Below, one piece after another: positions 3,238 through 19,760 of a DNA stretch of 42,537 nt. The number at the start of each line of letters is the position of its first letter. Within the stretch, counting starts at the first letter, position 1. Source of the DNA: Bacilli bacterium (GTDB lineage: Bacteria; Bacillota_I; Bacilli_A; RFN20; CAG-288); assembly GCA_041670045.1 (NCBI GenBank), contig JBAXZY010000002.1, forward strand, positions 1-42,537. The letters run 5' to 3'. The notes under the pieces were generated by a model, which did not search any database, was not told where the DNA came from, and was given only the letters and a program-made list of their open reading frames with translations. A program made the position numbers and the translations under genes.

Positions 3238-6085
3238 TCTTAGAAGCCTTTTTCTTTTGCTTGATGGCTTTCTTATCGACCTTGTGCTTCTTCTCACTGG
3301 CTTTTTCAGCAGCTGTCTTCTTACCGAAGACGACCTTGAAGCCACGCTTTACAACATAAGGCAATAAGGCCTTGACCTTGTCTTCAGCCTTATACATGGT
3401 GCTGGCTTCCGGATGAACTCTAAAGAGATGAATGGCATCGAAGTTGCACTTAGTGGTGCAGACTCCGCAGCCAATGCATTTGTTTTCGTCCACTACAGCA
3501 GCACCGCAGCTTAAGCAGCGCTTAGTCTCAATTGCCACCTGATCGCTAGTAAGAGTCTTATGGGCATCAATGAAGTTATGATGATAATCGATGGCTTCAT
3601 TCATGCCTTCTTCCTGACGGCCGGCATGATCGTAGGAGATGTCAGCAATATTGTTTTTATCTAAAGCCACATATTCGTATTTGTTTCTTCCAATAGTCAA
3701 AGAAGTGCCAGGCTGGACAAAACGGTGAATGGAGATAGCGGCCTTCTTGCCTTCCTCAATTGCATCAATTGCAAAACTAGGTCCAGTATAGACATCCCCG
3801 CCGACAAAGATATCGGGTTCTTCTGTCTGGAAGGTGATCTTGTCAGCCAAAGGACCTTTGGCACGATTGAAAGTAACTTTGCTGCCTTTTAGTAAGTCAT
3901 TCCAGACAATGGCCTGACCAATAGAGAAGATGACAGTCTTGCAGGGAATAGTCTTCGTAATGCTTTCATCATAGACCGGAGCAAAATGATGGTTTTCGTC
4001 ATAGACTTTCACGCACTTCTTGACGATGATGCCACTGACTTTGTTATCAGTAAGTAAAACTTCTTTAGGTGCCCAGCCACAGTTGATTTCAACCTTTTCT
4101 TCTTCAGCTTCCTGAATCTCCTGCTTAGTAGCCGGCATGATGTCTCTAGTCTCCAGACAGAACATGGAGACCTTGCCTGAAGTCAAACGGGTGGAGCTTC
4201 TTGAAGCATCGATAGCGACATTGCCGCCGCCAATAACAACTACATCACCTAATAACTTCGGAGCTTTGTCTTCTTGGATGGCACGTAAGAAATCAACAGC
4301 CGTAAAGACATTCTCACCTGTTTCCCCATTGATATGAGGAAGCTTGCCACCTTGACAGCCGATAGCAATATAGAAAGCCTTATAGCCTTCTTTTCTTAAG
4401 CTATCTAAAGTAACATCCTTGCCGACTTCGACTCCATACTTGATATCAACGCCTAAATCCTTAATAACTTCAACTTCAGCATCAATAACATTCTTTTCTA
4501 GTTTATAAGAAGGAATACCATATCTAAGCATTCCACCGGGCTTAGCGCTCTTTTCATAGATAGTAGGGTTGTAGCCTTGCATAGCTAGATAGTAAGCACA
4601 GCTTAAACCAGCAGGTCCGGCGCCGATAATAGCGACTTTTTCTTTCCAACGGCCAACATTGGAGGCAATGATAGGAGTAGGAATATAACGAGTCTCTTTC
4701 TTTAAATCCTGTTCAGCCAGGAATTTCTTAACGGCATCAATGGCCACTGGATGATCAATGGTTCCTCTAGTGCAGGCATCTTCGCATTTCTTGTTGCAGA
4801 TTCGGCCGCAGATGGCAGGTAAAGGATTTTCCTTCTTGATCAAAGCCAACGCTTCCTGATATTTGCCTTGACTGGCAAGTTTCAAATAGCCTTGAACAGC
4901 AATATGGGCTGGGCAGCTAGCTTTGCAGGGAGCCGTACCGGTTTCATAGCAATTGATGCGGTTGTTGTCACGATAGTTCTCATCCCACTTGTCTTCACCC
5001 CAATGCATATTGTCCGGAAGCTCATGCTTAGGATAATTGATAGGACCAGTCTTAGTGCAAAGCTTCTGACCTAACTTAACGGCACCGGCGGGGCAATGCT
5101 CGACACAGCCACCGCAGGCCACACAGTTCATCGGATCGACTTTAGCGACATAGGCGCTTCTTGACATATTGGGTGTGTTGAATAGCTGGGAGGTTCGTAA
5201 GGCATTGCAGATGTTGATGTTGCAGTTGCAGATAGCAAAGATCTTGTTCTTGCCATCAATGTTAGTGATCTGATGGACAAAGCCGTTATCTTCAGCTCTT
5301 TTCATAATAGCCATAGCTTCATCGTAAGTGACATAATGGCCTTTTTTAGTTTCCACACAGTAATCAGCCATATCTCCTAAGCCGATGCACCAGTCTTCGC
5401 AGTTGTCGCCACAGCCTTCACCTAATTTGGCTCGGCCATAACGGCAGGAGCAGATACCGGCTGAGATATGACCGGCATATTTCTTCAGCCAATAGGAAAT
5501 ATGTTCGATATCAATGGAGGTATTCTCCATCTTGATGGCTTTTTCAACTGGGATGACATGCATACCAATGCCAGCACCGCCCATAGGAACTAAATGTGTT
5601 ACTTTCTCTAAGGGTAAGAAGGTCATTCTTTCAAAGAACATGGCCAGTTCCGGATGCTTATCAATAGCTTCCTTTCGCATATTGGTGAATTCAGCGGAGC
5701 CAGGGACAAATAAAGGAAGGACATAATAACGGACATGAGGGGCACCTTTGATCGGACCATTGTCGTCATAGTGGTCACCATAGTTGAATTCCAATAATCC
5801 AGCATAGGACATCTGATCAAGAAGTTTCTGAACCTGCTCCGGAGTCTTCTCTTTATTACGTTTGCAGATTTGTTCAAAGGTATAAGGTGTTCTTAACTTC
5901 ATAGTTAAAGCAATATCGGCCATTTCATCAGTCATAACACATCTTAAGCCCCAGTATTCTGGGTCTTCGGAAGTTACTTTGTGCCCGATGCGGTCAGTGA
6001 CACGCTGAGCAATCTTGAGAATCTTCTTATTGGGGTTCTTCTCTCCGATGAACTCCGGCTTATAGGCTTTGGACATTTCAGGCAT
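3230..6085 (-). CDS. Multidomain Fe-S flavoprotein, GltD/NfnB-like NAD(P)H oxidoreductase with extra Cys-rich and ferredoxin domains
   Basis: CNKKCEDACTRG followed by the Rossmann motif VAIIGAGPAGLSCAYYL and a second fold VVVIGGGNVAIDASR. C-terminal CLSCGAAVVDENKCIGCGVCTTKC. N-terminal Cys clusters (CSCRYG, CNCNINIC, CVACGGCVEHCP). Confidence 0.75.
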   Translation of the reverse strand: MPEMSKAYKPEFIGEKNPNKKILKIAQRVTDRIGHKVTSEDPEYWGLRCVMTDEMADIALTMKLRTPYTFEQICKRNKEKTPEQVQKLLDQMSYAGLLEFNYGDHYDDNGPIKGAPHVRYYVLPLFVPGSAEFTNMRKEAIDKHPELAMFFERMTFLPLEKVTHLVPMGGAGIGMHVIPVEKAIKMENTSIDIEHISYWLKKYAGHISAGICSCRYGRAKLGEGCGDNCEDWCIGLGDMADYCVETKKGHYVTYDEAMAIMKRAEDNGFVHQITNIDGKNKIFAICNCNINICNALRTSQLFNTPNMSRSAYVAKVDPMNCVACGGCVEHCPAGAVKLGQKLCTKTGPINYPKHELPDNMHWGEDKWDENYRDNNRINCYETGTAPCKASCPAHIAVQGYLKLASQGKYQEALALIKKENPLPAICGRICNKKCEDACTRGTIDHPVAIDAVKKFLAEQDLKKETRYIPTPIIASNVGRWKEKVAIIGAGPAGLSCAYYLAMQGYNPTIYEKSAKPGGMLRYGIPSYKLEKNVIDAEVEVIKDLGVDIKYGVEVGKDVTLDSLRKEGYKAFYIAIGCQGGKLPHINGETGENVFTAVDFLRAIQEDKAPKLLGDVVVIGGGNVAIDASRSSTRLTSGKVSMFCLETRDIMPATKQEIQEAEEEKVEINCGWAPKEVLLTDNKVSGIIVKKCVKVYDENHHFAPVYDESITKTIPCKTVIFSIGQAIVWNDLLKGSKVTFNRAKGPLADKITFQTEEPDIFVGGDVYTGPSFAIDAIEEGKKAAISIHRFVQPGTSLTIGRNKYEYVALDKNNIADISYDHAGRQEEGMNEAIDYHHNFIDAHKTLTSDQVAIETKRCLSCGAAVVDENKCIGCGVCTTKCNFDAIHLFRVHPEASTMYKAEDKVKALLPYVVKRGFKVVFGKKTAAEKASEKKHKVDKKAIKQKKKASKNA

Positions 6086-13326: not shown

Positions 13327-13415
13327 ATTTCGTTTCCATTATAAAACTTCTCACGCCTTTGTCAATAGACATTGCTTTTTGTTCTTGCAATTCAAAGATT
13401 TCCTACTAAACTATT

Positions 13416-13516
13416 GCTTACGGGAATGATGTTCTCCCTGGCGTAAGCCAAACCGCTAATCAAATAAATAGCTGATGACATCTAAGGTTAAACACCTAGC
13501 TGTTATCAGTTTTTTT
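13416..13516 (+). promoter_or_regulatory. Structured 5' leader with an intrinsic terminator ahead of the antiporter gene (riboswitch/attenuator candidate)
   Basis: Hairpin GCUUACGGGA...UCCCUGGCGUAAGC (13416-13448). A 9-bp stem CUGAUGACA/UGUUAUCAG (13472-13509, one G-U) is followed by U7 (13510-13516). Then GGGAGG RBS (13520-13525) and ATG at 13531. Confidence 0.4.
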
Positions 13517-13530
13517 AATGGGAGGACAGC

Positions 13531-14748
13531 ATGTTTTTTCTAAGCTTAGGTATCATTCTTTTAGTTGGTGGCTTAGTCGGTTTTCTTTTTCAGAAGATTC
13601 GTTTGCCGGCTCTTTTAGGTTATCTTTTATTAGGTATTCTTCTTGGTTATTTCGGTCTTGTCGATGAGGACTTATTAGCTATCTCCTCGGAAATCAGGAA
13701 GATTGCCTTAATCATCATTCTTTTAAAAGCTGGTTTATCGCTTAACATCTCTGATTTAAAGAAGGTAGGAAGACCAGCTATCCTCATGTGTTTCCTTCCA
13801 GCCTGCATGGAAATGTGCATCGTTGGTGTCCTAGGTCACTATTTCTTTGATCTCACTTTCAATGAAAGTTTCCTTTTAGGTTCCGTCTTAGGAGCCGTCT
13901 CTCCCGCGGTTGTTGTTCCTCGAATGACTAAAATGATGTCAGAAGGTTATGGCACTGATAAAGGCATACCTCAATTAATAACTGCTGGCAGTTCCATGGA
14001 TGACATTGTCATGATTGTCTTCTTTAATTCCTTCATGACCATTGAAAAAGGATCATCGGTTTCAGCGATGACCTTTTTGAATATTCCTCTTTCAATTCTT
14101 TCAGGTGTCGGAGTCGGCGTATTGATTGGTTTCTTGCTTGTTTTGCTATTCAAATATGTTCATCTCCGGGATTCATTGAAGCTATCTTTGATTATTGGAA
14201 TAGCTGCCTTATTAGTATTCTTAGAATCCTATCTTGAAAAATGGTTTTCTTTTTCAAGTCTTTTAGCCGTCATTTCTTTAGGCATGGTCATTCTGGCTAA
14301 AAGACCAGTGGCTGCTAAAAGAATCAGCCAGAAATGTGAAAAACTCTGGACCGTTGCTGAAATCTTCTTATTTGTCTTAGTTGGAGTCTCGATTCAGATT
14401 CAGTACTTCAGCAAATATATTTTGATGTCTTTAGCACTTCTTGCCTGTTCCTTATTAGTACGATCACTGGCCGTCCAGTTATGTCTTATCAAAACCAAAC
14501 TGAATCTCAAAGAAAGAATCTTTGTCGCTATTTCTTATTTACCTAAGGCTACTGTTCAGGCAGCTATTGGCGGAACCCTCTTAGATTATGGAAACTCAGT
14601 CAGCAATGATGCCATCATTGCTGCTGGCATCATCGTCTTATCAGTCTCTGTCGTCTCAATTCTCTTTACTGCCCCTTTAGCTGCTTTCAGTATGGACTTA
14701 ACCTACACAAAGCTTACTACTAGAACCTTGGAGCCTGTTCAAAGCTAA
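13531..14748 (+). CDS. Cation:proton antiporter (Na+/H+ exchanger family), second copy
   Basis: Polytopic membrane protein. N-terminal LPALLGYLLLGILLG motif. 405 aa. Confidence 0.8.
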   Translation: MFFLSLGIILLVGGLVGFLFQKIRLPALLGYLLLGILLGYFGLVDEDLLAISSEIRKIALIIILLKAGLSLNISDLKKVGRPAILMCFLPACMEMCIVGVLGHYFFDLTFNESFLLGSVLGAVSPAVVVPRMTKMMSEGYGTDKGIPQLITAGSSMDDIVMIVFFNSFMTIEKGSSVSAMTFLNIPLSILSGVGVGVLIGFLLVLLFKYVHLRDSLKLSLIIGIAALLVFLESYLEKWFSFSSLLAVISLGMVILAKRPVAAKRISQKCEKLWTVAEIFLFVLVGVSIQIQYFSKYILMSLALLACSLLVRSLAVQLCLIKTKLNLKERIFVAISYLPKATVQAAIGGTLLDYGNSVSNDAIIAAGIIVLSVSVVSILFTAPLAAFSMDLTYTKLTTRTLEPVQS

Positions 14749-15436
14749 GGCGGTCATTATCTTTTTCTTCTCTTGTAAGAATATGACCGGCTTCTTTAAG
14801 ACTATTATCCAAATGATATTCTGGCATATTCTTAAAGAGTATGACATTGTTATCAAAGTTTTCTTCACTAAGTGAGGTGTAGTTATAGTCTTTGTTGAAC
14901 AAAGGTATCAGATCATTGATTAAGTTATAAGTCCTGTTCTTTTTGTCGACAATCAAAACATCAACTAAGGCCGAAGAACCATCCTCAAAGAAGCTTTTCT
15001 GAACTACATACCTAATTACGCCATCAGTTTCAAAATCTGGTACAGTTTGCTCAGATTTGCTTTTTAACTCAAAGTCGATTTCTTTTAATGCTGCCATGGC
15101 AACTGAAATCATAGAATCATTGTAAATGCATCCTCCTTCTGGGCGATAACATTCGAAAATATCATCAAGATCACAGATCAATCCATACTGATATTTATTG
15201 AATCGCTTATGAAACAGCATTTGTAATGTATTCGGATAGATAAATTTACTAGTGGCTTTTCTAAACCACTTTTCATAGTCACTGGGTGCCAGTCTTTTAT
15301 TAATAATGAGATTGATTCCGAAAACTAAATAATCATAGTCGTAGTCCCAGGGACCTGAAAAATGTTTGCTTTCAAAATAAGAATATATATCCTTGTCACT
15401 CATCTTCATCAGTTCATTCAGTTTTATCGGATCCAT
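14720..15436 (-). CDS. Hypothetical protein co-oriented with and immediately downstream of rtcB
   Basis: Start moved to MDPIKLNELMK (ATG 15436), 13 nt after the rtcB stop, with an AAGGAAAAAA RBS. I recognise no motif. The 3' end overlaps the convergent antiporter gene by 29 nt. Confidence 0.55.
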   Translation of the reverse strand: MDPIKLNELMKMSDKDIYSYFESKHFSGPWDYDYDYLVFGINLIINKRLAPSDYEKWFRKATSKFIYPNTLQMLFHKRFNKYQYGLICDLDDIFECYRPEGGCIYNDSMISVAMAALKEIDFELKSKSEQTVPDFETDGVIRYVVQKSFFEDGSSALVDVLIVDKKNRTYNLINDLIPLFNKDYNYTSLSEENFDNNVILFKNMPEYHLDNSLKEAGHILTREEKDNDRLSFEQAPRF

Positions 15437-15449
15437 AAAGCTTTTTTCC

Positions 15450-16637
15450 TTAGTTAGTGGCTTTGAAGTTATAGATAGGTTTAATGACACTAGTAACATC
15501 AACAGTAGGCTTAATCATCTCTAAGATCTCCTTTGAATTCTTATAGGCTTTAGGAGCTTCATCCAAAGTATCAAGAGTGGCGGTAGTGGTATAAATGCCT
15601 TTCATAGATGAAGTGAATTCATTTACTGAAAGAAGCTTCCTAGCCTGACTTCTGCTAAGCCGTCTTCCCGCTCCATGAGGAGCGGAATAATTCCAATCTT
15701 TATTTCCTTTGCCAACACCTAAGATAGTTCCATCTTTCATATTGAGAGGAATAATTACTTTTTCTCCTTTCATTGCAGAAATAGCACCTTTCCTGACTAC
15801 ATTGTTTTCATCAATGTAGTTATGAACTGATTCAAATTGGTCAACTACATGCCAACCCATTTTCTCTAAAATCAATTGTGAAATCAAACGGCGGTTGACT
15901 TTAGCCCAGTCCTGAGCAATTCTCATGTCATGCAGATAATCAAGTCGGTGCTGATTAATCAAATAAGATAATTCCAAAGGAACTAATCTTTTATTTTGAT
16001 AGGATTCTTGAATTGCATCAATGGCGGATTTGATCCTTCTTTGCTGTCCTTCACTTTTCAGTAAGGAGATGACCTGTTTTATTTTTCCGTCTCTTTCATC
16101 ATTCAAAGAACAATCATCCTGGGCTTCTTCCTGATAGAGTTCCGCAATTTGTTTACCTAAGTTCCGACTTCCGGTATGAATGACTAAATAGATAGCCCCA
16201 TCCTGACTTTTATCTAATTCAATGAAGTGATTGCCACCACCTAAAGAACCTAGAGACCGATCAATCCATTTCTTATTGTCATTCAGTTTCTTATAGCAAA
16301 GGACATTTTCTAAAGAATAGTCTTTGACTATCGAATCATGAACAGTCATTCCGGAAGGGATGACATCCTTGATGACTGAGTCTAGTTTCTCTAAGTCAGG
16401 GTTAGAATCATCAATCTGGGTTACTAACATGCCACAGCCGATGTCGACTCCGACAATATTAGGTATTATCTTTTCACCTAAGTCAGCGGTAAAACCTACT
16501 ACACAGCCTTTACCAGAATGACAGTCAGGCATGATTCTGATTTTGGCATTTGAAAAAGCTTTTTGAGAAGCTAAAAGGTTTATTTGATTGGTGGCTTCTT
16601 CTTCAATTGTTTTAGCAAAAATCTTTAAATCAGACAT
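15450..16637 (-). CDS. rtcB: RNA-splicing/repair ligase RtcB
   Basis: Hallmarks MPDCHSGKGCVVG, VGVDIGCGM, GGGNHFIELD, HTGSRNLG, SAPHGAGR. AAGAGG RBS present. Confidence 0.92.
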   Translation of the reverse strand: MSDLKIFAKTIEEEATNQINLLASQKAFSNAKIRIMPDCHSGKGCVVGFTADLGEKIIPNIVGVDIGCGMLVTQIDDSNPDLEKLDSVIKDVIPSGMTVHDSIVKDYSLENVLCYKKLNDNKKWIDRSLGSLGGGNHFIELDKSQDGAIYLVIHTGSRNLGKQIAELYQEEAQDDCSLNDERDGKIKQVISLLKSEGQQRRIKSAIDAIQESYQNKRLVPLELSYLINQHRLDYLHDMRIAQDWAKVNRRLISQLILEKMGWHVVDQFESVHNYIDENNVVRKGAISAMKGEKVIIPLNMKDGTILGVGKGNKDWNYSAPHGAGRRLSRSQARKLLSVNEFTSSMKGIYTTTATLDTLDEAPKAYKNSKEILEMIKPTVDVTSVIKPIYNFKATN

Positions 16638-16657
16638 GGTTTTACCTCTTTTCTTTC

Positions 16658-16711
16658 AAAAAAAAGGATAAGACTAATTGCTCATTTAGTAGAGTAATTA
16701 ATGCTTATCCC
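16658..16711 (-). terminator. Strong intrinsic terminator between the structured RNA and the rtcB RBS
   Basis: Minus strand reads GGGAUAAG-c-AUUAAUU ... AAUUAGU-CUUAUCC (about 14 bp, one bulge, one G-U) followed by U8 (16658-16665). The rtcB ATG is only about 20 nt further on. Confidence 0.7.
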
Positions 16712-17320
16712 TTTTTTATAAACGCAGGCTTTCGCCTTACACCCGTTAATCCTGCAGTTGTTTCGGTCAATCAGGGTCCTAGCCCGAGGGCAATAGAGCG
16801 ACTACTGCTCTACTAGGATCATCTCCTAGCAAAAGGAGACTGAACTGATAATGGCACTACGGCCACTGACTTTCAGGAAACGTCGGTAAAAATTGAATGA
16901 TGCCAATTCTTGATCGGCCTTTTTCTTTATTCTTGCCGGAGATACCCCTACTCGTACCTGACTAAGACACTATAGCCTATTACTAGGCATCAACTCCGAG
17001 ACCTTGTTTTGAGTATACCTCAAGGTTTGTCCTTCGATCTCACTCGAAGGCAAGAGGCGGCCAGGAAGCTCTTGCGAGCTCATTATGTATGGCTCTTATG
17101 GTCCTATCTCAGTCATTACCTTAACTTTCAGATTCAGATGCACTGACTTCCGAAAGGTGTTTATTAGACACCTTCCTTGCCCCTTTCAAAGCAAGGCATT
17201 TGTTTCCTGAAAAAGTAGCCTTCCTCAGTCCTTATTCGGAGATCATCCAGCCGATCAGTAAGATCATCTTCAACTGGTTGCGAGTATATTATCGGTCACC
17301 CTTGCTTTTAATAATAGGTG
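16712..17320 (-). ncRNA. Large (about 600 nt) structured RNA element of unassigned family, upstream of rtcB
   Basis: Lies in the largest ORF-free gap of the window. G+C enriched (17041-17100 is 32/60 by my count, against AT-rich flanks). At least 10 local hairpins. Three GNRA tetraloops form only on the minus strand (17067-17080 GCAA, 16975-16988 GUAA, 16726-16737 GAAA). Several plus-strand A-C mismatches become G-U pairs on the minus strand. Confidence 0.6.
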
Positions 17321-17337
17321 CAGAATAATTATAGTTA

Positions 17338-17412
17338 GTGTTCCATATTGGTATGGATTTTATCGATATATTTGGTGTATTATATATCTTAAAGTGTTCC
17401 ATATTTTGGAAC
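17338..17412. promoter_or_regulatory. Twin operator-like sites in the divergent promoter region
   Basis: Exact 12-mer GTGTTCCATATT at 17338-17349 and 17394-17405. Each lies in a palindrome (TCCATAttggTATGGA at 17342-17357; GTTCCAtatttTGGAAC at 17396-17412). A minus-strand TATAAT sits at 17328-17333. Confidence 0.45.
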
Positions 17413-17421
17413 TAACTAACT

Positions 17422-18444
17422 ATGGATGAAAAAATAAAGGTCAATTTGTCGTATCGTGACTACTATTCCTTATTGAATGATATGGAGCTATTTTATTATG
17501 TCAAAGAAAACGGAGAACTGAAGCAGAATCAGTTTCTGAATCAGTTAGTTGTCAATTTCTACAAGGATGATGAGAATCAGAATGAGTTGATATCATCCTT
17601 ATTAGATAAGCAATTAAAAGCTAACATCAAAGGCAATATCAATGATTTAAAAGATTCTTTATTAAGTCTTTTAGCTACACCTAAAAATGAAAGCCTTATT
17701 TACCGCAGTTATGATTGTTCTTTATCCTTTAGACCAAGTAAAGAAAATCAGGATGTCTTTGATTATATTGAAGCCAATCTCTTAAAGAATGTTTCTATTT
17801 CCAGCTACTTCCGTTCCTTGTTTCATAGTTACCTAAGATTAAGCGGAGCTGAAAGAGAAGCCGTTATCTTTTCAAGAGAAACAAATCAAATCAATGAAGC
17901 CATTGAAAAAAAGAGAATCCTCCGACTTAAAATTGGTGGCAAAGAAGAAGAATTCTATCCTTTTCAAATGAGAACCACTAAAGAAGAGAACTTCATTTAT
18001 GTGATTGGTCTTTTAAAAGGTAAGACCATTTATTCTTTCCATCTTTATAAATTGAAAGGCCTGACAATGACTACTCATACTTTTGAATTCTCCAATGCTG
18101 ATAAGAAAGCCTTAACTAAAGCTTCTTCTTCCGCTATTGAATATGCAAATGCTGATTTAATAGAAGCCAAAATAAGATTAACTCCTCTAGGTCAGAAATC
18201 ATTTAGAAGAATCTGGCATAACCGTCCTGAACCGATTAGGATTGAAGACGGCTTTTATTTCTTTGAAGCACCCTATCAGCAATTGCTCCATTACTTTACC
18301 CGTTTTGGTAATGAAGCTGAAGTCTTCCGTCCTTTAAGACTTCGGAATGATTTCAAGCACTTCTATGAGAAGGCTTTAAAAGCCTATACCGAAAATAAGA
18401 CAGATAAAGAAACCTGGCCGAACCAAAACAAAAAGGAGGTGTGA
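17422..18444 (+). CDS. WYL-domain-like regulator with a WCX-like C-terminus
   Basis: Middle region ILRLKIGGKEEEFYPFQMRTTKEENFIYVIGLLKGKTIYSFHLYKLKG fits the WYL pattern (x-P-x-x-hydrophobic ... aromatic-Y-hydrophobic ... F-x-L-x-K-hydrophobic). C-terminus LLHYFTRFGNEAEVFRPLRLRNDF resembles the WCX ending. The N-terminus has no obvious wHTH and could be ribbon-helix-helix. Confidence 0.55.
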   Translation: MDEKIKVNLSYRDYYSLLNDMELFYYVKENGELKQNQFLNQLVVNFYKDDENQNELISSLLDKQLKANIKGNINDLKDSLLSLLATPKNESLIYRSYDCSLSFRPSKENQDVFDYIEANLLKNVSISSYFRSLFHSYLRLSGAEREAVIFSRETNQINEAIEKKRILRLKIGGKEEEFYPFQMRTTKEENFIYVIGLLKGKTIYSFHLYKLKGLTMTTHTFEFSNADKKALTKASSSAIEYANADLIEAKIRLTPLGQKSFRRIWHNRPEPIRIEDGFYFFEAPYQQLLHYFTRFGNEAEVFRPLRLRNDFKHFYEKALKAYTENKTDKETWPNQNKKEV

Positions 18445-18456
18445 TTAAGCACCTCC
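18425..18456 (-). terminator. Intrinsic terminator for the amidohydrolase gene, overlapping the end of the WYL gene
   Basis: GGAGGUG-cuuaauca-CACCUCC followed by UUUUUGUUUUGG on the minus strand. Confidence 0.6.
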
Positions 18457-18464
18457 AGACTTAA

Positions 18465-19760
18465 CTAAATCAATGAATCCAAGTTCTTCTCCAGCTTTTT
18501 ATTGACAGAGACATGAGGATTCTTAATTACTTGTCCTTTCATAAAGACATAGCTGAGTTTTCGTAACGTCTTCAGATCCTGATAGGGAGAAGCAGAGCTG
18601 ACAATCATGTCAGCTGATTTTCCAATGCTGATACTGCCAGTGACATCATCAAGATGCATGATGGAGGCATTGATAATTGTAGCGGTCTTTAAGGCATATT
18701 CATTAGAAGCCAAAGCATACTTGTGGAAATAATTCAATTCCCTCCACATACCGGTTTGGGAAGCAAACGGACAAGAGGAATCAGTTCCTAATCCGACTTG
18801 AATGCCGTTAGCAAGGCATTGCTTGGCACAAGTGATGATACCATCAGAAACTATTTTGCAGGATGCAATCTGAAGAGGAGTGTAATGTGTATAGGGAGCA
18901 GGTAAAACAACCGAAGGAAGGGCTGGAGAAATAGTAGTGATGATATGAGAATTTCCTTTTTTAAGTTCTTCTATTTCCGAATCCGTCAAGACTGCGCCAT
19001 GTTCAATCGTATCAACCCCGGCCTTCAGACAAATTTCGACTCCTTTAGTAGATTCCGTATGAGAAGCAATGATCAAATGATTCTTATGGGCTTCATCAGC
19101 ACACCACTTAGTCTGCTCCAGTGTCATTCTGACATCTCCGGGTTCATCCGGCTTTGTGGCGTCCATGACGCCACCAGTCACACAGATTTTGACTAAATCC
19201 GTGTGATACTGAAGATTGTCGTTGATCAGTTTCACTAATTCTTCTTTTGTCTCGCCACCTCTAGCAATTGAGCCTACTCCATGTCCATGAGTAGTCGTAA
19301 CGGCAAAACCGGAAACTAACATTCTAGGTCCGATATATTTGACGGCATTAATCTGGTTTCTAGTATAGACATCAGGATAATAGATATCACCAACTGCTCT
19401 AATAGTGGTGCAACCGGAATGCAGTTGATTAAGAGCACCTTGTTTTGCCATCAAACGCAAATACTTTTTTCCTAAAGGAGTAGCGGCAAAATCAAGAATC
19501 ATCTCCTGTGCTTTGCCTTTCTTTGCGGTGGAATTTTTCGGTACTCCGTTTCCAAAAAGATGAACGTGAAGGTTAATTAAGCCTGGCATCAGATAATGAT
19601 TCTGAATATCAATAATGGGAAGACCAGCTGGTATCTTCTCCTGTTCTCCGATACCAACAATCTTGCCCTCATTTACTTCTACATATTGATTAGGAATGAT
19701 CTTATCATTGATAACATCCACTAAATTAGCGTTACTGATTACATAATGTTTGTCTTTCAT
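18465..19760 (-). CDS. Metal-dependent amidohydrolase-family hydrolase
   Basis: HVHLFGNG (HxH metal motif), IEHG, VGLGTDSS. GAGGA RBS. 431 aa. Confidence 0.8.
   Translation of the reverse strand: MKDKHYVISNANLVDVINDKIIPNQYVEVNEGKIVGIGEQEKIPAGLPIIDIQNHYLMPGLINLHVHLFGNGVPKNSTAKKGKAQEMILDFAATPLGKKYLRLMAKQGALNQLHSGCTTIRAVGDIYYPDVYTRNQINAVKYIGPRMLVSGFAVTTTHGHGVGSIARGGETKEELVKLINDNLQYHTDLVKICVTGGVMDATKPDEPGDVRMTLEQTKWCADEAHKNHLIIASHTESTKGVEICLKAGVDTIEHGAVLTDSEIEELKKGNSHIITTISPALPSVVLPAPYTHYTPLQIASCKIVSDGIITCAKQCLANGIQVGLGTDSSCPFASQTGMWRELNYFHKYALASNEYALKTATIINASIMHLDDVTGSISIGKSADMIVSSASPYQDLKTLRKLSYVFMKGQVIKNPHVSVNKKLEKNLDSLI

Follow-up and report, generated by a model that had tools for sequence, protein, structure and literature searches.

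The 42,537-nucleotide (nt) stretch analysed here (hereafter the window; positions 1 to 42,537 of contig JBAXZY010000002.1 from a Bacilli bacterium) carries a gene for a large noncoding RNA (ncRNA), an intrinsic terminator and the rtcB gene in succession, together with a divergently oriented gene for a WYL-type regulator. The RNA belongs to the ROOL class. The reading that we favour, with moderate confidence, is that ROOL and rtcB make up a single unit controlled by the WYL protein, in which the terminator would yield abundant ROOL and a minority of the transcripts would reach rtcB. All coordinates refer to the whole window; the terminator, ROOL, rtcB and the promoter module lie on its minus strand. 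The elements on which the argument is built are, in the order of the minus strand:

17422 to 18444, plus strand: divergent regulator gene, 340 aa, with an N-terminal strand-helix (ribbon-helix-helix-like), a WYL and a WCX domain predicted as in WYL1
17394 to 17412, minus strand: operator-like inverted repeat 1, GTTCC-N7-GGAAC(AC), adjoining the regulator start codon, with the same motif and position in relatives
17318 to 17344, minus strand: half-site 2 and candidate promoter, made of GGAACAC (17344-17338), TAAC, TATAAT (17333-17328) and TGCAC (17322-17318)
16707 to 17301, minus strand: full-length ROOL RNA gene (Rfam RF03087)
16658 to 16717, minus strand: intrinsic terminator, made of an A6 tract, an interrupted 17-18-bp hairpin and a U8 tract
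16717 to 16712, minus strand: A6 tract of the terminator, read from the sequence
16711 to 16666, minus strand: hairpin of the terminator, GGGAUAAG.CAUUAAUU.ACUC-loop-GAG.CAAUUAG.UCUUAUCC
16665 to 16658, minus strand: U8 tract of the terminator, read from the sequence
16638 to 16657, minus strand: 20-nt spacer holding the ribosome-binding site (RBS) AAGAGG (16650-16645) and free of promoter-like sites, according to the sequence and to promoter scans
15450 to 16637, minus strand: rtcB, 395 aa, RNA 3'-phosphate/5'-OH ligase family (Pfam RtcB, E = 4e-58)

The RNA gene matched the Rfam model RF03087 from end to end (model positions 1-574 of 574, about 595 nt in the window) with 167.8 bits for a gathering score of 99.1 and an E value of 6e-36. 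What a first-pass annotation, made from the sequence alone, had described as a 600-nt RNA is a ROOL RNA and not an unidentified leader. ROOL RNAs, described in 2017 (Weinberg et al., PMC5737381), are large ornate RNAs of phages, prophages and some bacterial chromosomes, are often found near tRNA islands and have no known function (PMC5737381; PMC12286853). Cryo-electron microscopy of other members of the class established in 2025 that ROOL assembles into an RNA-only homo-octameric cage (Kretsch et al. 2025, PMC12286853) and, as far as the work of Ling et al. is summarised in PMC12515178, cargo fused to the 3' end leaves the octamer undisturbed. In Ligilactobacillus salivarius, ROOL is extremely abundant and has a stability like that of 16S rRNA (Cousin et al. 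2017, PMC5643018). The window RNA resembles these members in its full-length match above the gathering score, its size, its presence in metatranscriptome contigs and its terminator-like end. Unlike the published cases, which come from phages, prophages and tRNA islands, the window copy is chromosomal with no tRNA in the 42.5 kb, and it lies immediately before rtcB, with the putative operators of a WYL regulator in front of it.

Regarding its expression, ROOL words were detected in 14 RNA runs and rtcB words in none. The metatranscriptome contigs, obtained from eight runs, span only positions 16719-17269 with an assembler depth of up to about 350. It should be noted that this RNA evidence consists of assembled contigs, some of which come from variant strains, and that the 3'-most position, 16719, is contributed by a variant strain. 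One contig (record 3 of run X18, depth 354) matches ROOL at 16741-16877 and continues into 157 nt of unrelated sequence; it represents either a variant strain with another ROOL 3' end or flank, or a chimera.

The first-pass annotation had placed a 14-bp hairpin with a U8 tract just before the RBS and the rtcB start codon, and the sequence bears this out. The U8 tract is followed by 7 nt (GAAAGAA), the AAGAGG RBS, another 7 nt and the rtcB ATG at 16637, so that 20 nt separate the end of the U8 tract from the ATG; the 14 bp correspond to the two lower segments of a stem that contains about 17-18 pairs in three segments (7-8, 7 and 3 pairs) and is capped by an 8-nt loop. The element has the hallmark of intrinsic terminators, a stable stem-loop directly before a U run. 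The folding energy of the isolated hairpin was -15.8 to -17.4 kcal/mol; in a context of 101 nt that includes pairing of the A tract with the U tract, it reached -28.6 kcal/mol (z = -4.3), with 2 of 200 shuffled sequences being equally stable. Among the 17 hairpin-plus-U-tract sites of both strands of the entire window, this one ranked third. It escaped a stricter terminator scan, it seems because the stem is interrupted at two single bases.

Conservation was assessed against the orthologous locus L021/L022, in which RtcB is 93% identical and the synonymous divergence (dS) of rtcB is 0.405. None of the 38 positions of the hairpin arms differed, compared with 2 of the 8 loop positions and 4 of 244 positions in the ROOL body; the spacer showed 2 changes in 20 nt, and the U tract is changed by a 2-nt insertion to T5CT4. 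This comparison shows a constraint on the terminator stem as strong as that on ROOL itself, with purifying selection on the hairpin arms; the element is genuine and non-random. In itself, the terminator is an ordinary device, and its worth is that of a handle revealing the coupling of the two genes.

The same annotation had seen no -35/-10 pair between the terminator and rtcB. Standard and permissive scans agree with it, as nothing promoter-like follows the terminator. The standard scan returned no site within 16638-16725. The permissive scan, which accepts 7 of 12 matches and has a background of 35 chance hits per kb and strand, returned within 16640-16800 a single candidate with 7 matches (TCTACT-17-TATCCT, 16693-16665), a density below background. 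No sigma-70-like site was therefore found between ROOL and rtcB by these scans, which were aimed at sigma-70-type promoters.

The conserved promoter-like module lies on the other side of ROOL. Every locus of the clade to which the window belongs carries GTTCC-N7-GGAAC beside the start of the regulator gene and a second GGAACAC about 55 nt further on, followed by an AT-rich -10-like box and then, for most of these loci, by a conserved TGCAC-like box; the -10-like box of the window is a perfect TATAAT. Inverted repeat 1 was located at the same position in L002/L006, L003/L008/L023, L007, L011 and L018. In relatives devoid of ROOL, GAACA(C), an AT-rich -10-like box and (C)TGCAC stand in the same order before rtcB. 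In one of them, L002, the module leads into a leader of about 110 nt and then into rtcB, and in the window it leads into ROOL. Since the same ordered module is found before ROOL here and before rtcB elsewhere, the regulated module upstream of ROOL is homologous to the one that serves rtcB in the relatives. The module order is also kept in a more distant clade, with a variant half-site (GTGTTCA / TGTGAAC). We infer that ROOL is transcribed from a regulated promoter at 17318-17344, which would also serve rtcB through read-through. In that distant clade (L009, L010, L012-L016, L019 and L020), the roughly 190 bp upstream of the regulator hold TTGTaCAC-N5-GTGTTCA, TGTGAAC and TGCACATTT.

The relatives were collected by scanning one genome per species with a profile of the regulator, which yielded 15 loci from metagenome-assembled genomes of Bacilli, Anaeroplasmataceae and Mollicutes; the arrangements were called by tblastn and Rfam scans of the loci. 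Some loci bear several numbers (L006 is L001/L002, and L003/L004/L005, L008 and L023 are the same). Four arrangements were distinguished:

Regulator back to back with rtcB at about 190 bp, no ROOL: ten species (L006, L009, L010, L012-L016, L019, L020)
Regulator, ROOL, then rtcB: the window and L007
Regulator and ROOL, no rtcB: L003/L004/L005 = L008 = L023, and L011
Regulator with neither ROOL nor rtcB: L017 and L018

In L007, the final ROOL helix is separated from the rtcB ATG by 16 nt that contain neither a hairpin nor a U tract. At such a junction, rtcB can be transcribed only by way of ROOL. The ROOL genes of L003 and L011 close with a GC-rich terminator of their own, followed by unrelated DNA, which indicates that a terminator is a normal end of a ROOL gene. 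A consistent tie in cis between ROOL and rtcB was not found, as each occurs without the other behind the same operator-like sites. Neighbour joining of the regulators united the loci that bear ROOL in one clade, within which L002 is nested, and the regulators of the clade carrying ROOL at this promoter are only 33-64% identical. This topology suggests that ROOL was gained once and that ROOL or rtcB was lost later. More broadly, these loci point to a type of rtcB locus under WYL regulation in Bacilli and Anaeroplasmataceae, as a parallel to the Rtc system regulated by a CARF protein. At L018 (Bacillales bacterium UBA7642; 4900-5200), the regulator homologue is 75-83% identical in pieces and both operator-like sites are kept; the regulator gene is broken by a masked run of N, the flank is different and neither ROOL nor rtcB lies upstream.

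The rtcB product contains the motifs MPDCHSG, GGGNHF, HTGSR and APHGAGR, which align to solved RtcB chains of the PDB, and both its metal-binding Cys/His motifs and its GMP-accepting His are intact, as expected of the family. It scored below the NCBIfam equivalog cut-offs and so represents a divergent RtcB subfamily. Compared with the L021 gene (dS 0.405), the nonsynonymous divergence (dN) is 0.033 and dN/dS 0.08, which shows strong purifying selection. With such a ratio and intact catalytic motifs, rtcB is functional and must be expressed in the lineage that possesses ROOL and the terminator.

The 340-aa protein encoded divergently gave no Pfam or NCBIfam match at default cut-offs, and in particular no match to Pfam WYL. 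A profile of its six close homologues, however, matched PDB entry 6oaw (WYL1) with an E value of 0.0057, and Pfam WCX was recognised in three of these six family members (best E = 2.3e-5), the window protein itself being below the cut-off. An AlphaFold2 (AF2) model of moderate confidence (predicted local distance difference test, pLDDT, of 70.7) was submitted to Foldseek; 6oaw again came first (E = 1.4e-14, about 375 columns), followed by PafBC, DriD, CapW and BrxR with E values of 1e-7 to 1e-3. At its N-terminus, the model has a strand and a helix, as in the ribbon-helix-helix of WYL1. The earlier suspicion of a WYL protein is upheld by the profile match, by WCX in the relatives and by the fold comparison, and the model predicts the architecture of WYL1, a WYL barrel followed by WCX. 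The family is large, with 965 representatives at E <= 1e-3. Like the WYL regulators to which it was compared (WYL1/6oaw, PafBC, DriD, CapW and BrxR), the protein combines the WYL and WCX folds, with a nearly full-length match to WYL1, and its gene diverges from its putative targets with conserved inverted repeats nearby. It differs from them by an identity of only 9-18% and by predicted targets, rtcB and ROOL, that are not those described.

The mechanism that would account for these observations is the following. Transcription would start from the candidate promoter some 20-30 nt upstream of ROOL (TATAAT, 17333-17328), flanked or overlapped by two operator-like sites for the divergent WYL regulator. 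Most transcripts would end at the hairpin and U8 tract and give a stable and abundant ROOL of about 600 nt; a minority would read through into the RBS and coding sequence of rtcB, and perhaps into the open reading frame (ORF) that follows it. The terminator would then act as a fixed attenuator setting a high ratio of ROOL to RtcB, and the conditional control would be exerted at initiation by the WYL protein. Regulation at initiation is indeed the most likely mode. The protein would bind DNA at the two sites, and other WYL regulators as well as RtcR suggest, by analogy, a fragment of nucleic acid as its putative ligand. Of the alternatives formulated in the first-pass annotation, the second fits best, in which an ncRNA forms its 3' end in balance with the expression of rtcB. 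The interpretation given there stands in part, and its read-through requirement holds: transcripts coming from upstream must pass the terminator, the sole conserved module lies upstream of the RNA, and in L007 the two genes are fused; the read-through itself is what we infer.

Several points weigh against this reading. The candidate promoter upstream of ROOL has no good -35 box, and the promoter scans covered sites of the sigma-70 type. In the distant clade, a second conserved box, ATATAAT-N-AAGTGTA, lies right before the rtcB RBS; this proximal box may be the actual rtcB promoter there, and in some lineages the homologous module may be an operator array and not the actual promoter. With its long hairpin and its A and U tracts, the element looks like an efficient terminator, which casts doubt on the amount of read-through. 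The transcript support consists of assembled metatranscriptome contigs, and a sample of about 1 in 100 of the raw reads of the very large runs X29 and X30 placed none on the locus. Finally, RNA contigs lack rtcB also in L007, where only a 5' ROOL contig was obtained; as L007 has no terminator, the absence of rtcB from contigs cannot gauge the efficiency of termination.

The best surviving alternative, which we consider improbable, is a conditional terminator: the way in which ROOL folds or assembles into octamers, an action of the WYL protein on RNA or some further factor would modulate read-through into rtcB, and ROOL would serve as a sensing or processive-antitermination leader. In the Rfam alignment, the 3' strand of the ROOL closing helix extends into the Gs with which the terminator stem begins at its base, and in L003 and L011 the terminator also abuts this strand; since strand and stem base meet, ROOL folding and hairpin formation could compete. 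WYL1, to which the regulator is structurally closest, was solved as an accessory protein of CRISPR-Cas and is reported to be a binder of single-stranded RNA. Elsewhere in the window, moreover, a fluoride riboswitch provides a bona fide conditional terminator right before an ORF. Yet in the full-length ensemble the terminator pairs form with a probability of 0.85-1.0 and no stable competitor; the best that the 5' arm can form otherwise is a weak GU-rich helix of 6 bp with the 5' end of ROOL, at a probability of about 0.4 that it reaches only in the absence of the 3' arm. Ensemble folding of nascent and full transcripts thus revealed no stable antiterminator and no mutually exclusive pairings, the minimum-free-energy fold of the 673-nt RNA being uninformative on the true, pseudoknotted fold of ROOL. 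The alternative antiterminator pairings proposed earlier also find no backing from covariation, because the hairpin is carried only by near-identical orthologues. The occurrence of ROOL without rtcB and of rtcB without ROOL behind the same operator-like sites, and the ability of L007 to manage without a terminator, argue in the same direction.

A giant riboswitch- or T-box-like leader, as the first-pass annotation had entertained, is not supported, given the Rfam identity of the RNA, a known stand-alone, abundant and self-assembling ncRNA, and the uncoupling of ROOL and rtcB in relatives. The resemblance to such leaders lies in a structured RNA followed by a hairpin and a U tract about 20 nt before an ORF, a layout also displayed by the fluoride riboswitch of the window; unlike them, ROOL is not tied to the downstream gene, has no detectable antiterminator and appears to accumulate as a stable RNA.

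We rate slightly lower the view that ROOL and rtcB are abutting but separate units, with an unconventional rtcB promoter embedded in the hairpin, the U tract or the 3' end of ROOL. From the weak TCTACT-17-TATCCT candidate, transcription would begin close to where the U tract ends; poor -35 boxes are tolerated in AT-rich genomes, and in L. salivarius the gene 3' of ROOL acts as a separate unit (PMC5643018). However, a score of 7 of 12 is at chance level and the 160-nt stretch as a whole is below background, while the hairpin accounts just as well for a -10 box lying inside a stem kept at 38 of 38 positions. L007 leaves no room for any promoter, and in the ROOL-less relatives the regulated module is placed directly before rtcB. 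Least probable by far is that ROOL and its terminator were inserted recently, from a phage or as a mobile element, and severed rtcB from its promoter, leaving it nearly silent and the juxtaposition functionless: ROOL is frequent in phages and prophages, RtcB homologues of the same subfamily occur in phage-like contexts, the nearest relative in the regulator tree (L002/L006) has no ROOL, and the ORF after rtcB is an orphan partly deleted in L021, but rtcB has kept its low dN/dS since a split from L021 that already had ROOL and the terminator, ROOL is found at this promoter across a clade of widely diverged regulators, and no integrase, repeats or tRNA were found near ROOL-rtcB.

Among known systems, the closest functional analogue of the proposed WYL-controlled unit is the rsr-yrlBA-rtcBA operon of Salmonella, in which ncRNAs are part of the rtcB unit and the divergent RtcR has a CARF domain predicted to sense tRNA halves (Hughes et al. 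2020, PMC7790460). Both have a structured ncRNA upstream of rtcB within the rtcB unit and a divergent regulator with a domain predicted to sense nucleic acids. The likeness is one of layout only, and the window does not qualify as an RtcR-controlled rtcBA system: its regulator is of the predicted RHH-WYL-WCX type and not a CARF-containing sigma-54 enhancer-binding protein, its RNA is a ROOL of about 600 nt from a class that forms homo-octameric cages and not a Y RNA, no Rsr or RtcA family match was obtained among the 10 neighbouring ORFs scanned, and between its RNA and rtcB stands an intrinsic terminator.

Partial intrinsic terminators inside an operon set the ratio of its products, as does the attenuator between rplL and rpoB of E. 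coli. The terminator of the window would likewise set the ratio of upstream to downstream product within a unit and without a downstream promoter; here the upstream product would be a stable ncRNA, unlike that of the rplL-rpoB type.

The arrangement with ROOL behind a WYL-type rtcB promoter adds a new variant to the RNA-repair operons that embed an ncRNA. It offers a first hint from genomes at the possible purpose of ROOL and an experimentally tractable lead on its function, as it places ROOL in a defined regulatory context, behind the operator/promoter module of rtcB and next to a WYL regulator. In two lineages, those of the window and of L007, ROOL would be on the same transcription unit as rtcB. 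A more speculative proposal, which we hold to be possible but rather unlikely, is that a WYL regulator sensing broken RNA would switch on ROOL and RtcB together, ROOL being a working part of an RNA-damage response. Transcripts arising by read-through in the window, or by obligate fusion in L007, would place the rtcB message or substrates on the cage, or the cage would shelter or scaffold the repair of tRNA or rRNA or serve as a ribotoxin decoy; the share of rtcB-tailed subunits would be tuned by the terminator. No paper naming both ROOL and RtcB was found in the literature searched. Where WYL and RtcB occur in one paper, this appears to come mostly from a cited title, and WYL-RtcB neighbourhoods may already have been noted by Burroughs & Aravind 2016.

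Phage loci were retrieved with a 21-base ROOL motif pattern, which gave 76 loci (L024-L099), one of them, L046, being confirmed as ROOL by Rfam. RtcB was within reach in this one locus only, which rules out a general ROOL-RtcB linkage in the pattern-matching phage loci. On the L046 phage contig (3001-5620; 11728-12444), a tRNA array is accompanied by a strong ROOL (305.8 bits), with RtcB lying some 6 kb downstream. A hairpin with a U tract followed the motif in 20 of 68 pattern-matching phage loci, versus 6 of 68 in the antisense control. In many of them (for example L032 at about 1730 and L029 at about 10234), the last ROOL hairpin and the U-rich 3' strand of the closing helix (such as CCTTGCATTTAGCAAGG TTTTTTAT) are terminator-like by themselves; the ROOL of the window lacks that U run and has a separate hairpin in its place. 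A terminator at this place thus appears to be a common ending of ROOL genes and not a device specific to rtcB. A pattern for the ROOL subclade detected one metagenome locus (like L008) and no viral locus, and blastn of ROOL against annotated phages gave no match. RtcB homologues 55-58% identical to that of the window were encountered on phage-like contigs (L100, L103-L107), in the vicinity of tRNA arrays, of the recombination genes ERF and SSB and of a second RNA ligase (PF09414), and this RtcB subfamily looks largely phage-borne. Tight coupling of ROOL and rtcB is specific to the WYL clade, and both elements share the tRNA-island milieu.

The ORF following rtcB begins 14 nt after its stop codon:

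14720 to 15436, minus strand: orphan ORF, 238 aa, with no family match

No homologue of it besides itself was found among 5.8 billion clusters. At the orthologous locus L021, about 265 nt of the region are deleted and only a 60-aa ORF was called. The ORF is possibly co-transcribed with rtcB, and its status as a gene is uncertain.

On the other side of the locus, a GC-rich hairpin with a U tract (18435-18456, minus strand) ends an amidohydrolase gene (18465-19760, minus strand) and overlaps the 3' end of the WYL gene, whose stop is at 18444. The fluoride riboswitch (RF01734, 41.8 bits) occupies 13413-13530 on the plus strand, 3 kb from the terminator of ROOL; its hairpin and U7 tract (from 13509) end about 15 nt before a gene of the Na+/H+-exchanger family (13531-14748).

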